Made by a program: the position numbers and the translations under genes. A model generated the notes under the pieces. That model did not search any database. It was not told the origin of the DNA and was given only the letters and a program-made list of their open reading frames with translations. From positions 1 to 64,000 of the forward strand of contig CAZETU010000004.1 of the NCBI GenBank assembly GCA_964514585.1: 64,000 bases of DNA. Reading direction: 5' to 3'. Each line of letters starts with the position of its first letter. Position 1 is the first letter of the stretch. Positions 22,393-26,828 of this stretch are shown here, in pieces. The stretch comes from Candidatus Woesearchaeota archaeon (GTDB lineage Archaea; Nanobdellota; Nanobdellia; Pacearchaeales; GW2011-AR1).

Positions 22393-25257
22393 ATGACATA
22401 TGTGAAGAAGATAGTGATGCACGGATTCAAATCTTTCGCCAGAAAAACCGAAATTCCACTAGAAAACGCAATGAATGTAATCGTCGGACCAAACGGCTCA
22501 GGAAAATCAAACATCACAGACGCACTCTGCTTCGTTCTAGGAAGACTTTCAATTAAATCAATCCGAGCAGCAAAGGCAGCGAACCTTCTTTTCTCAGGAA
22601 ACCAGACATACAAGGGTTCCAATGAAGCTTCAGTAGAATTAATCTTCGACAACTCTGACAAAACTTTCGGAGTCGACGCAAGCGAAGTAACCATTAAAAG
22701 AATCGTAAGAAAAAACGGACAATCAATCTATAAAATCAACGGCCAAACAAAAACAAGACAAGATTTACTAGAGCTACTTTCCCAAGGCGGAATCGACCCA
22801 AATGGATTCAACATCGTCCTTCAAGGCGAAATCCAATCTCTAGTCAAAGCAACATCAGAAGAAAGAAGAAAAATAATCGAAGAAGTCGCAGGAATTTCAA
22901 TTTACGAAACAAGAAAACACAAATCCTTAAGAGAGCTAGAAAAAACCGAAGAGAAATTAAAAGAAATCTCCGCCGTTCTAAAAGAAAGAGTATCTTATTT
23001 AAAAAATCTGGATAAAGAAAGACAAGAAGCAATATCATACCAAAAACTTGAAAAAACAATAAAAAAATGCAAAGCAACACTTCTCTCAAGAAGCATGAAC
23101 GAAAAAGAAATTGAAATTTCAAAACTCAATAAAGCAATTGAAGAATTCGAAATAGAAATAGAAAAACTAAGAAAATTAATCTATGAAAAAAACGAAGGCG
23201 TAGATAAGCTCCAAGACAAAATAGTCGTAGTTAACAAACAAATCCAATCTTCAACTAGCGAAGAACAAGAAATACTACACAGAGAAATATCAGACCTAAA
23301 GGCAGATCTTGCAGGATTAAATGTCAGACGAGAAAACTTCGAGAACAGAATTATTCAAGGAAAAGAAAAAATAGATGAGCACAAAGAAAAAATCGAAAAT
23401 CTAAACTTAGAAATATCAAAAATCCAAACCAGCAGCCCAGAGATTAAAAAACAACAAGAACAACAAAAAATCTTACAAGACAAATTCGACATCCTCGAAC
23501 AACAAAGAAGAAAATTTTACATGTTAAAATCAGAACTCTCAACCCTAGAAAACCAAAAATTCGAAAAAGAAAAAACATTAATCGAATCGAAAAAAGAAGT
23601 TCAACTTATCGAACAAAACATAACCTCGCTATTTCACGAAATCAAATATGCCAAATCAGTAGAAAAAGTCAAAGAGCTGAAAAAAGAATCTGAAAAAGAG
23701 ATTGACGAAATTCAAAATAAGATCGCCAAATTAGAAGAAGAAATTTTAGAAAAGGAAAAACGCGTAGCCATTCTTGGACAAGATGTCAAAAGAGAAGAAA
23801 AATTAAAAGATGACATTACAAAATTAGACAAATGCCCAGTCTGCAAACAAGATGTTAAAAACGAATACAAAGACGATATTTCCATAAACGCCAATATAAA
23901 AATAGACGCAGCCAAAATCGAAATCGAACAAAGCATGAAAACCAGAGAAGAAAACGCGAAGAAAATCGCTTTACTAAAACAGTCCCGTTCATCCCTAAGA
24001 ACAAAAATAAACGAATTAGATATCGACCAATTCAAACTGCAAAACTCAGAAGAGAAAAAGAAGCAAATTCAAAAAATAACACTTATGCAAGAAGAATCCC
24101 AAAAAGAACTCGTAAAAATTAATGAGAAAAATCATTCAATACGAGAAGAATTTGAAAAACTAAAAGACATCGAAGAAAAATACGACGACACAAGATTAAA
24201 ACTGCAAGAACTAAGCTTCGCAGATATGGACGTCGACACAGAAATAACAGTCAAACAAAGAGAAGTAAGTAGATTAAGTATGGAACTAAAATCCTCAACA
24301 AGAGATATAGAAGATTCAACAGTAGAACTCAAAAAAATAGAAGTCCTAATTATTGAAAAAGACAAATTAGTTGGCAAAAAAGAAATTGAAGAACAAAAGC
24401 TATATGAAAAATTCCAAAAATTCTTCGAAGAAAGAAACGAAATCCAAGACCAACAAAAAGTCTTAGAAACCGACGTCGTAGGAATGCAACATACAGCAAG
24501 AAATTTCGAAGACAAAATAAACCACAACAAAATCCAAAGAGCCCAATACAAAGCTCAAATAGATTCCATCAAATCAGAACTAACAGAATTTGGCTCTATA
24601 GAAATACTAAGTATACCAATAGATCAAATCAAAGAAAGACTCCAAAAATCTCAATTCAAAATATCAAGATTAGGAAACGTAAATCTAAGAGCCCTAGAAG
24701 TTTTCGACAAGGTTGGAGAACAAGTAAAACTAATACAAGAAAAAGTTACAATAATCATACAAGAAAAAGAAAAAATTGAAACCATTATAGCAGAAATTGA
24801 CAAGAAAAAGAAAAAGTCTTTCTTAGGAACACTAGAAGCTGTTAACGAATACTTCACAAGAAATTTCAAACAGCTATCCAGAAAAGGCGAAGTCTTCCTA
24901 GAACTAGAAAACAAAAAAGAACCCTTCGACGGAGGGCTAAACATTTTAATCAAAGTCTCCCGTGGAAAATACTTCGACATCACAAGCCTATCAGGCGGAG
25001 AAAAAACAATGGTAGCCCTAGCCCTAATCTTCGCGATACAAGAATACAAACCATACTGCTTCTACGTCTTCGACGAAATCGACGCCGCCCTAGACAAACA
25101 CAACTCAGAACTCCTAGCAGCCCTAATCAAAAAATACATGACAACCGGCCAATACATCGTAGTAACCCACAACGACACTCTAATCTCAGAAGCCACAAAT
25201 ATCTACGGAGTATCCATGCAAGAAAATATCTCTAAAATAATTAGCTTGAAACTTTAA
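22393..25257 (+). CDS. smc: Smc-type ATPase lacking the hinge, with a central CPVC zinc-hook motif
   Basis: GPNGSGKSN, DALCFVLG, GNVNLRA, LSGGEK, FDEIDAALD, VVTHN; 954 aa; CPVC at residue 481. Confidence 0.85.
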   Translation: MTYVKKIVMHGFKSFARKTEIPLENAMNVIVGPNGSGKSNITDALCFVLGRLSIKSIRAAKAANLLFSGNQTYKGSNEASVELIFDNSDKTFGVDASEVTIKRIVRKNGQSIYKINGQTKTRQDLLELLSQGGIDPNGFNIVLQGEIQSLVKATSEERRKIIEEVAGISIYETRKHKSLRELEKTEEKLKEISAVLKERVSYLKNLDKERQEAISYQKLEKTIKKCKATLLSRSMNEKEIEISKLNKAIEEFEIEIEKLRKLIYEKNEGVDKLQDKIVVVNKQIQSSTSEEQEILHREISDLKADLAGLNVRRENFENRIIQGKEKIDEHKEKIENLNLEISKIQTSSPEIKKQQEQQKILQDKFDILEQQRRKFYMLKSELSTLENQKFEKEKTLIESKKEVQLIEQNITSLFHEIKYAKSVEKVKELKKESEKEIDEIQNKIAKLEEEILEKEKRVAILGQDVKREEKLKDDITKLDKCPVCKQDVKNEYKDDISINANIKIDAAKIEIEQSMKTREENAKKIALLKQSRSSLRTKINELDIDQFKLQNSEEKKKQIQKITLMQEESQKELVKINEKNHSIREEFEKLKDIEEKYDDTRLKLQELSFADMDVDTEITVKQREVSRLSMELKSSTRDIEDSTVELKKIEVLIIEKDKLVGKKEIEEQKLYEKFQKFFEERNEIQDQQKVLETDVVGMQHTARNFEDKINHNKIQRAQYKAQIDSIKSELTEFGSIEILSIPIDQIKERLQKSQFKISRLGNVNLRALEVFDKVGEQVKLIQEKVTIIIQEKEKIETIIAEIDKKKKKSFLGTLEAVNEYFTRNFKQLSRKGEVFLELENKKEPFDGGLNILIKVSRGKYFDITSLSGGEKTMVALALIFAIQEYKPYCFYVFDEIDAALDKHNSELLAALIKKYMTTGQYIVVTHNDTLISEATNIYGVSMQENISKIISLKL

Positions 25258-26828
25258 TTACAAAAATCAACAACAAAATACTTAGCAGTTAACTTCTCAC
25301 CAGTCGCTCTCTCAACCAACTCAGACGAAGTATACTTGTTCCCAGCCTTAAAAATTTTCTCAATCAAATACTTTGAAACATCCTTGTTTCCAGAATAATC
25401 ACTATCAAAATCCCCCACATAATTCTCAACAATATAATTATGCAACTGACTCGCCATCAACTCCCCAAGCATATAATGATGATAATAAACAGGACAACTC
25501 GCCAAATGAACTTTAGAAGCCCAATCTGGCTTATCACGACTAAAATCAATCAACTGATATTTCTTAACCATGTCCCACCAAAGCTTATTCAAATCTTGAT
25601 CCGGATTCCTATACAACTCCTGCTCAAAATTAAACATAACTAGGCACCACCTACAAAAAACAATCTGTCTCACCCTCAACATCTTACTAATATCTTCTCG
25701 AACACCCTCAACATCAGCACCACAATAACTCTTAATAAAATTAGGGTTCCTTGACTTCCTCCCAAACAACAAGGCAATAGCCTCGGTAGTATATATATTA
25801 GGACTATCTCTCAAAAGAAATGAATCGGCCTCATCATAATTCTTACCATACACCGCATGCCCCAATTCATGCAAAATCGTGTCCATCCACTTTTCATTAT
25901 TTATCAAATTATTAATCGTCCTAACATCTCCCTTTCTATCCATATCAATACAACAAGCATGGGGATATTTTCCCTTACGCTCATAAAGATCACTGAACTT
26001 AATAATATCGTCAATATCAAACCCCAAACTTTCATAGTAACTCCTAGCTTTAACTAAAATATCCTCACCATAAAAAGAATCCAAATCAACATCATAAATA
26101 CTCGGTCCCTCCTGGAAATAAGGATCCTCATAATGCCACGGCCGAAGCTCACTCTTGTCAATATCATGCTTAACAGACAAATAATCATTTATCTCCCCCA
26201 TCAATTTTCTAAATGGAGCATCAGTTTTTTCCTCAAGCTCATCAAAAACCTTTTTCAACTCATCAATATTTTGTTCTTGAAATTCCAACGACATCAAATA
26301 ATAATTCTCAAAACCCAAACTCTTAGCAAGTTTATTCCTCAACTTAATAATCTCAACGATAGGACCACAACAAATCTCCCCTCTTTTCTTGCTAGCCTCC
26401 CAAGCCTCTTTTAATTTACCAGAATCTTTCTCTTTAGACAAAATTTTCTTAATATCATTATCACTAACATCCTCTCCACCAAGACTAGGACGAAAAACAT
26501 TAAACATCTTTTTCACGGCTCCTTCTTTTCTAGTAATCTCCTCCACCAAAGCTTTATCTCCAGCTGCCTCCAAACAAAGATTATATAATATTTTCAACTT
26601 ACGCTTCAACTTAGGCTCCAAACCCTCAATTTCCAAAAATTTCTTCACCTTCCCAAAATCATCAGAATTATTAAAAAAATTCTTAATCTTCAAGTCCGCC
26701 TCAGTATACGCCTCATACTTTTCATCCTCACCACTCAAAACAGCATCCCAATAAGAACAAGTCTCACCACGATACAACTCCCCATAACCTCGTTCTTTCT
26801 CATCAACAAAAGCACCAGAGTCTTCCAT
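25254..26828 (-). CDS. Gluzincin metallopeptidase (M2/M3-like)
   Basis: LHELGHA, TEAIA, KVHL..CPVYYHHY. Confidence 0.85.
   Translation of the reverse strand: MEDSGAFVDEKERGYGELYRGETCSYWDAVLSGEDEKYEAYTEADLKIKNFFNNSDDFGKVKKFLEIEGLEPKLKRKLKILYNLCLEAAGDKALVEEITRKEGAVKKMFNVFRPSLGGEDVSDNDIKKILSKEKDSGKLKEAWEASKKRGEICCGPIVEIIKLRNKLAKSLGFENYYLMSLEFQEQNIDELKKVFDELEEKTDAPFRKLMGEINDYLSVKHDIDKSELRPWHYEDPYFQEGPSIYDVDLDSFYGEDILVKARSYYESLGFDIDDIIKFSDLYERKGKYPHACCIDMDRKGDVRTINNLINNEKWMDTILHELGHAVYGKNYDEADSFLLRDSPNIYTTEAIALLFGRKSRNPNFIKSYCGADVEGVREDISKMLRVRQIVFCRWCLVMFNFEQELYRNPDQDLNKLWWDMVKKYQLIDFSRDKPDWASKVHLASCPVYYHHYMLGELMASQLHNYIVENYVGDFDSDYSGNKDVSKYLIEKIFKAGNKYTSSELVERATGEKLTAKYFVVDFCN

Follow-up and report, generated by a model that had tools for sequence, protein, structure and literature searches.

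The smc gene of the window and its ATPase heads

The sequence analysed here (hereafter referred to as the window) is a stretch of 64,000 nucleotides (nt) from contig CAZETU010000004.1 of a Candidatus Woesearchaeota archaeon (order Pacearchaeales, assembly GCA_964514585.1). Positions 22393–25257 of its + strand hold an smc gene, an intact open reading frame (ORF) that encodes 954 amino acids (aa) followed by a stop codon. The product is a putative hinge-less Smc with a zinc hook at its apex. Very probably it is the one genuine Smc of this cell, the ATPase of a condensin-type Smc-ScpA-ScpB complex, in which the hinge region of ∼155–175 residues has been replaced by a hook module of the Rad50 type. 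A preliminary description, made from the sequence letters, had proposed such a chimera from its condensin-type head motifs, its length of 954 aa, the lack of a globular hinge and a CxxC motif near the midpoint. The frame is open and the checked translation confirms this length, and all of the quoted motifs could be located.

The N-terminal half of the head (∼residues 1–169, positions 22393–22899; all features of this gene are on the + strand) was delimited from the motif positions and from the strands and helices of the structural model described below. It contains the Walker A motif GPNGSGKSN (residues 32–40, 22486–22512), the DALCFVLG motif (residues 43–50) and the Q-loop residue Q144 (within 22819–22833). 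The GNVNLRA motif lies at residues 761–767. The C-terminal half of the head (24877–25254), placed from its motifs, carries the signature LSGGEK (residues 866–871, 24988–25005), the Walker B motif and D-loop FDEIDAALD (residues 893–901, 25069–25095) and the H-loop THND (25165–25176). The SMC-type ABC ATPase head is complete, with Walker A, Q-loop, signature, Walker B, D-loop and H-loop all present, and residues K38, Q144, S867, G868, G869, E870, D894, E895, D897 and H926 are invariant among 29 homologs.

Profile searches agree with this assignment. The protein matches SMC_N in Pfam (193 bits), and the NCBIfam models SMC_prok_A (TIGR02169) and SMC_prok_B with 522 and 505 bits. Both of these scores are under the curated cut-offs (729.4 and 567 bits, respectively), because the hinge region is absent and each match consists of two stretches that skip the middle of the protein. 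The Rad50 equivalog models give 52–76 bits, against cut-offs of 700–1087, the model NF045487 for the archaeal SMC-related proteins (ASRPs) gives 97 bits against a cut-off of 300, and RecN gives 53 bits.

I used AlphaFold2 to model the 954-aa protein from the 29 homologs (predicted local distance difference test, pLDDT, 81.5). In a Foldseek search with the full-length model, the best matches are the condensin subunit Smc4 (6yvu_B, 9e-35) and the Pyrococcus Smc structures 5xei (3e-31) and 5xns, and 4i99_B is matched with a TM score of 0.92 on the target; no entry for Rad50 appears above rank 15. From the motifs, the profiles and the fold, the heads are true Smc heads.

The apex of the coiled coil

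In the model, an ascending coiled-coil arm (∼residues 170–476, 22900–23820), with breaks at residues 206–218, 345–350 and 416–423, is followed by a descending arm (∼residues 490–828, 23860–24876), with breaks at residues 589–593, 611–616 and 732–769. These breaks pair across the two strands, 206–218 with 758–769, 345–350 with 611–616 and 416–423 with 589–593. Helices run across residues 169–476 and 490–828, giving each strand the length of roughly 300 residues or more by which Smc arms are recognised. The apex is a 13-residue turn (residues 477–489) between helices 423–476 and 490–589, and it holds the CPVC motif.

The model has no globular domain between the heads, and Pfam matches to the hinge family SMC_hinge (PF06470) are missing from the protein, from its 29 homologs and from the whole genome. 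The continuous, hinge-free coiled coil that had been read from the sequence is therefore also what the profiles and the model return. When aligned to hinge-bearing sister Smcs, the protein is collinear along the N-terminal arm to ∼residue 480, and the offset then jumps by 154–178 residues by residue 497. Since the jump falls right at the apex, the arms appear to have been kept and essentially only the hinge region to have been lost.

The CPVC motif (residues 481–484, 23833–23844) starts at residue 481, at 0.50 of the protein length, just where it had first been noted, and provides two putative zinc ligands per protomer. Five cysteines are found in all, at residues 46, 226, 481, 484 and 889. 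Both C481 and C484 are invariant in 20 homologs at 65–78% identity. Across the wider set of 29 homologs (29–77% identity), no column from residue 213 to residue 764 is invariant except these two, and P482 reaches a conservation of at least 90%. A CxxC motif occurs at the same place in all of the 120 nearest database matches (118 CPxC and 2 CFxC); 77 of these proteins are 954 aa long, and most of the others differ merely at the called start. Among representatives of clusters at 50% identity, all full-length relatives of ∼950 aa, down to 37% identity, have CPxC at 0.50 of their length, and none of the hinge-bearing Smcs of 1100–1200 aa has it at the midpoint. The motif is thus conserved far beyond chance, and it was kept in every orthologue that was looked at.

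Similarity of the apex to Rad50 hooks

The similarity to Rad50 covers a module of ∼90 residues (∼residues 437–526, 23701–23970) and is strongest at ∼residues 470–500. The motif of the window protein reads L-D-K-CPVC-KQDV-KNEYK, and the family consensus is L-x-x-CPxC-K-Q-x-V-x-x-E-H-K-x-K-I. I built a profile from 15 Smc apexes, each comprising the hook and 45 residues on either side (A4), and another from the hooks of the Rad50 proteins of the same lineage (A5). Among PDB entries, A4 matches two solved hooks of P. furiosus Rad50 best, 1L8D (E 2.5e-10 over 90 aligned residues) and 6ZFF (E 7.2e-10), and it also matches the human hook 5GOX. Aligned directly with hhalign, A4 and A5 match with a probability of 99.1 and an E-value of 1.2e-18, with the register kept at CPxC. 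The motif common to the Smc apexes and the Rad50 hooks of the lineage is L-x-x-CPxC-x-Q-x-V-x-x-[ED]-H-K-x-K-I. A control profile, taken from the Smc arm 150 residues upstream, matches A5 with a probability of 1 and an E-value of 0.052. Coiled-coil composition therefore does not explain the hook match, and was ruled out as its source.

A scan with the two Pfam families finds SMC_hinge in none of the 29 family members and Rad50_zn_hook (PF04423) at the apex of 11, the window protein itself not being among these. The best of the hook matches, for protein P0133, reaches 26.6 bits (cut-off 24.3), and others score 20–22 bits; the real Rad50 of the genome scores 19.6 bits.

The full-length Foldseek search is dominated by the heads and is uninformative on the apex, which was therefore modelled separately (pLDDT 94.4). 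With this model, the first and second Foldseek matches are chains of 1L8D (TM score 0.85, root-mean-square deviation 2.3 Å, 92 columns), and the third and fifth are other Rad50 hooks, from human and Chaetomium. In sequence profile, in direct alignment and in fold, the apex is specifically like a Rad50 hook well past the two cysteines, and the term chimeric in the preliminary description was well chosen.

Distribution and phylogeny

None of the 151 genomes of the order (84 genera, with 69 genomes of high quality) contains SMC_hinge, as opposed to 278 of the 301 genomes sampled from the phylum. Two unpublished genomes, G405 and G406, are among the 278 hinge-positive ones; without them the count is 276/299, and no other result uses them. 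The hook form is present in every one of the genus's 24 genomes and, within the order, in six families (f1, f2, f3, f4, f8 and f9), and hook Smcs are 37–43% identical between families. Of 101 genomes of the order, 97 have ScpB, and all five hook-Smc relatives that were tested for a separate Rad50 have one.

A tree of the heads alone was inferred with IQ-TREE (quick search, LG+C20 with posterior mean site frequencies, PMSF), with support from the Shimodaira–Hasegawa-like approximate likelihood-ratio test (SH-aLRT) only. In this tree the Smcs of the order are united in a single clade (SH-aLRT 99), which is nested within hinge-bearing Smcs of the Nanoarchaeia type, whose hinges score 105–123 bits. 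The genome's own Rad50 falls outside all Smcs, on a branch of length 10. Because of this nesting and of the hinge and hook tallies, the change from hinge to hook is best seen as derived and lineage-wide. Judged by the profile scores, the Foldseek matches and this tree together, the heads belong with Smc, and neither with Rad50 nor with the known hook-bearing ASRP family of ClsN and Sph.

As to where the hook came from, capture from a Rad50 gene by recombination, in the ancestor of this order of Pacearchaeota-type DPANN archaea, is the probable origin, in preference to convergence.

Several homologs carry features of their own. Close to the N-terminal head, four of them (P0102, 1486 aa; P0126, 1479 aa; P0131, 1483 aa; and P0249) contain ∼530 inserted residues. 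P0102 has annotated Intein and LAGLIDADG domains, and in P0249 an Intein_splicing domain occupies residues 46–194, within the N-terminal head. The hook-type P0126 and P0131 align to the window protein from residue ∼22–38 on, after an N-terminal offset of ∼530 residues. Protein P0196 (968 aa) matches the first half of the SMC_hinge profile alone (positions 2–63, 29 bits) and has no CxxC; it may represent a decaying hinge. Another genome of the order has, in addition to Smc fragments, a 1000-aa ORF (G039:C20:633-3542, − strand) that is only 29% identical to the window protein over its full length and may be a second SMC-like paralogue.

Hook-less sister Smcs and a second hook lineage

The hook is not universal in the order. 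Families f5, f6 and f7, along with several metagenomic relatives, possess Smcs of 779–837 aa with Smc heads, which have neither a hinge nor a cysteine motif and whose apex is not conserved. Such short forms are encoded at loci L028 (170–2581, +), L029 (3–2513, −), L030 (116–2470, +), L031 (120–2468, −) and L032 (44–2479, +), and include proteins P0141, P0143, P0145 and P0152. The short forms of f5 are sister to all other Smcs of the order (support 99). The remaining ones are scattered among the hook forms, an example being P0145, which falls with the hook Smcs of f4 (98). This pattern suggests that the hook was lost repeatedly within the order, along with a shortening of the arms. At least one genome with a short, hook-less Smc retains ScpB.

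A further hook was identified outside the order's clade. Protein P0266 (999 aa) has CPVC at 0.50 of its length and no hinge, and groups with hinge-bearing Smcs of the Micrarchaeota type (SH-aLRT 99), which suggests an independent, second hinge-to-hook origin. Forcing P0266 into the order's clade costs 48 log-likelihood units (approximately unbiased, AU, test, p = 0.035); as the test was framed post hoc, after the tree had been seen, and run with a quick search, this value is merely suggestive.

Taken all together, a history in which the order's ancestor captured the hook from Rad50, a Micrarchaeota-like lineage made an independent swap, and the hook was then lost repeatedly, with ∼75 residues of each arm, while ScpB persisted, is a tentative proposal, and I regard it as rather unlikely that every part of it is correct.

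Genomic context

The genome (1.04 Mb in 18 contigs, 89.65% complete) encodes ScpA (38.2 bits, cut-off 24.6) and ScpB (107.6 bits, cut-off 27.4), both on contigs other than that of smc. A separate Rad50 of 682 aa, with its own central CPTC at residue 349, is encoded on contig C1 (L005:163-2211, +). The gene for a compact Mre11 (397 aa, Metallophos; L004:302-1495, +) lies directly upstream of it, with a 4-nt overlap. The curated models for archaeal Rad50 exceed this Rad50 in length by ∼200 residues. No second Smc, with or without a canonical hinge, was found in the genome, where the remaining SMC_N matches are ordinary ABC ATPases, and no ASRP was found either. The look-up of partners that the preliminary description had called for thus returned ScpA, ScpB and a distinct Rad50. 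Since the hook-Smc is the sole Smc, and since ScpA, ScpB and a separate Mre11-Rad50 pair are present, it does not appear to stand in for Rad50; no mre11 gene adjoins smc, and the one that was found adjoins rad50 on another contig.

The neighbours of smc are unrelated to it. A PHP-domain protein is encoded upstream. Downstream lies a convergent gene (25254–26828, −) for a 524-aa metallopeptidase that resembles the M3, M32 and M2 families; there is a 4-nt overlap between the end of this gene and the stop codon of smc. In public records, homologs of the window protein are named merely ‘chromosome segregation protein SMC’.

Comparison with known systems

The window protein resembles canonical Smc-ScpAB (TIGR02169/TIGR02168; Pyrococcus Smc 5XEI, 5XNS and 4I99) in the sequence and fold of its heads, in its ATPase motifs, in the length of its arms and their coiled-coil breaks, and in the presence of ScpA and ScpB genes in the genome. 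It differs at the apex, where canonical Smc has a hinge and the window Smc has a CPxC hook in place of ∼155–175 residues. With the Rad50 hook (PF04423; 1L8D, 6ZFF, 5GOX) it shares CPxC, the x-x-x-[VL]-x-x-E-H-[KR] stretch and the hairpin fold; outside the apex, however, it is an Smc, without a head of the Rad50 type.

A protein of this design, with the heads and arms of an Smc and a tip formed by a Rad50 hook, has been constructed in the laboratory. In B. subtilis Smc(Zh), the hinge was swapped for the hook of P. furiosus Rad50, and the chimera was functional, showing that it matters unexpectedly little which type of dimerisation domain is present and that the geometry of the arms dominates (Burmann et al., 2017; PMC5344682). 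In contrast to that construct, the window Smc is natural, fixed across families of an archaeal order and conserved in length.

Two natural groups are also comparable. The ASRPs (coalescin ClsN, Sph1 and Sph2) are hook-bearing, hinge-less, SMC-related proteins of archaea (Yoshinaga et al., 2022; PMC9389158). They likewise belong to the SMC superfamily and carry a zinc-hook motif in place of the hinge, but they have a head family of their own, and their profile spans ∼590 positions, compared with the 954 aa of the window Smc. A cluster of SMC proteins from marine Actinobacteria is also naturally hinge-less, but is bacterial and explicitly without CXXC (Sussfeld et al., 2025; PMC12153180), the motif whose conserved presence defines the hook-Smcs; the short, hook-less Smcs of the sister families are closer to this cluster than the window Smc is. 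No description of a natural zinc-hook Smc was found in the literature searched, which covered few subscription journals. As far as that search shows, the swap had so far been made in the laboratory only; the present analysis adds a natural counterpart, the comparison with Rad50 hooks of the same lineage against a control, the tallies for order and phylum, and the hook-less sister forms.

Proposed mechanism and alternative explanations

In the mechanism proposed here, each chain would fold back on itself, forming a head and a near full-length antiparallel coiled-coil arm, and the 13-residue turn at the arm tip would present Cys481 and Cys484. Two chains would share one Zn2+ through four cysteines, as in Rad50, resulting in a constitutive V- or rod-shaped homodimer. 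ATP-driven engagement of the heads, together with the kleisin ScpA (with ScpB), would then close the ring and operate it on chromosomal DNA. Zinc binding and dimerisation through the hook are predicted by analogy with Rad50, and I infer that the hook-Smc binds ScpAB and acts in chromosome organisation.

Several observations weigh against this scheme. The window protein itself has no Pfam match to Rad50_zn_hook at E-values up to 1, and it has a tyrosine (NEYK) where most relatives, and Rad50, have the histidine of the E-H-K motif. Owing to the simplicity of a helical hairpin as a fold, the apex model has a weak Foldseek E-value (9e-3). The predicted template modelling score (pTM) of the full-length model is 0.43, meaning that the relative placement of its parts is unreliable, as is expected for a long rod. 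Finally, the existence of hook-less sister Smcs indicates that this lineage may have no strict need of a dimerisation element at the apex, which weakens the argument that the hook must be the point of dimerisation.

This last point is also the strength of the alternative that survives best, although it is an improbable one. The protein could be a hinge-less Smc whose CxxC is not a zinc-mediated dimeriser and instead stabilises the hairpin turn, forms a redox-sensitive disulfide or binds a partner; dimerisation would then rest on contacts between arms, between heads and with the kleisin. The sister Smcs of 783–837 aa lack hinge, cysteine motif and conserved apex, and ScpB is retained in at least one of the genomes that encode them, so that an apex dimeriser is apparently dispensable in this order. 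However, the similarity to Rad50 hooks is in register, extends at least 15 residues beyond the cysteines and reaches solved hook structures, for which no role other than intermolecular dimerisation through Zn(Cys)4 is known. In addition, two cysteines by themselves are too few to make up a tetrahedral zinc site in a single chain, and the other three (46, 226 and 889) are in or near the head.

A slightly less probable alternative is that the hook-Smc has changed its job, and serves as a Rad50-like DNA tether or repair factor, or as a coalescin-like compartment factor, and not as a loop-extruding or segregating condensin. It has gained a Rad50 module, and a reduced genome may merge roles. Yet it is the sole Smc, ScpA and ScpB are kept here and ScpB is kept nearly throughout the order, and Mre11-Rad50 persists as a separate system in this genome, as does Rad50 in all five relatives tested. 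Its heads and arm length are Smc-like, and in B. subtilis the engineered Smc(Zh) still functions as an Smc (PMC5344682).

That the protein is no Smc at all, and is a member of a known hook family (Rad50/SbcC, or ClsN and Sph1/2 among the ASRPs) or an assembly or truncation artefact with a lost hinge, can be dismissed: a central CxxC without a hinge is the hallmark of the hook families (PMC9389158) and the SMC_prok_A score is below its cut-off (522 against 729), but that score far exceeds those for Rad50 (at most 76 bits) and ASRP (97 bits), the genome holds no ASRP and its Rad50 is far outside the Smc tree, and the 954-aa architecture recurs on hundreds of independent contigs, including those of every genome of the genus.

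Implications

The role of the SMC hinge has long been debated, with an entry gate for DNA, a DNA-binding site and a mere dimeriser as the candidates. To my knowledge, the engineered B. subtilis Smc with a Rad50 hook is the only direct test of this role so far. If the Smc of the window is what it appears to be, evolution has made the same hinge-to-hook swap and kept it in the only Smc that a large archaeal order possesses, and the near-constant length of the arms agrees with the idea that what is critical is arm geometry and not the hinge. One practical consequence is that searches based on the hinge, and the curated Smc cut-offs, miss or under-score the hook-Smcs.

The family offers natural proteins for biochemistry, with a small predicted dimerisation module, near-normal arms and matching ScpAB, and its hook-less sister lineages provide a comparative system for the minimal apex of an SMC motor. 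Should the hook capture, the second, independent swap and the hook losses all prove true, neither the hinge nor an apex dimeriser would be essential for Smc-ScpAB in vivo.

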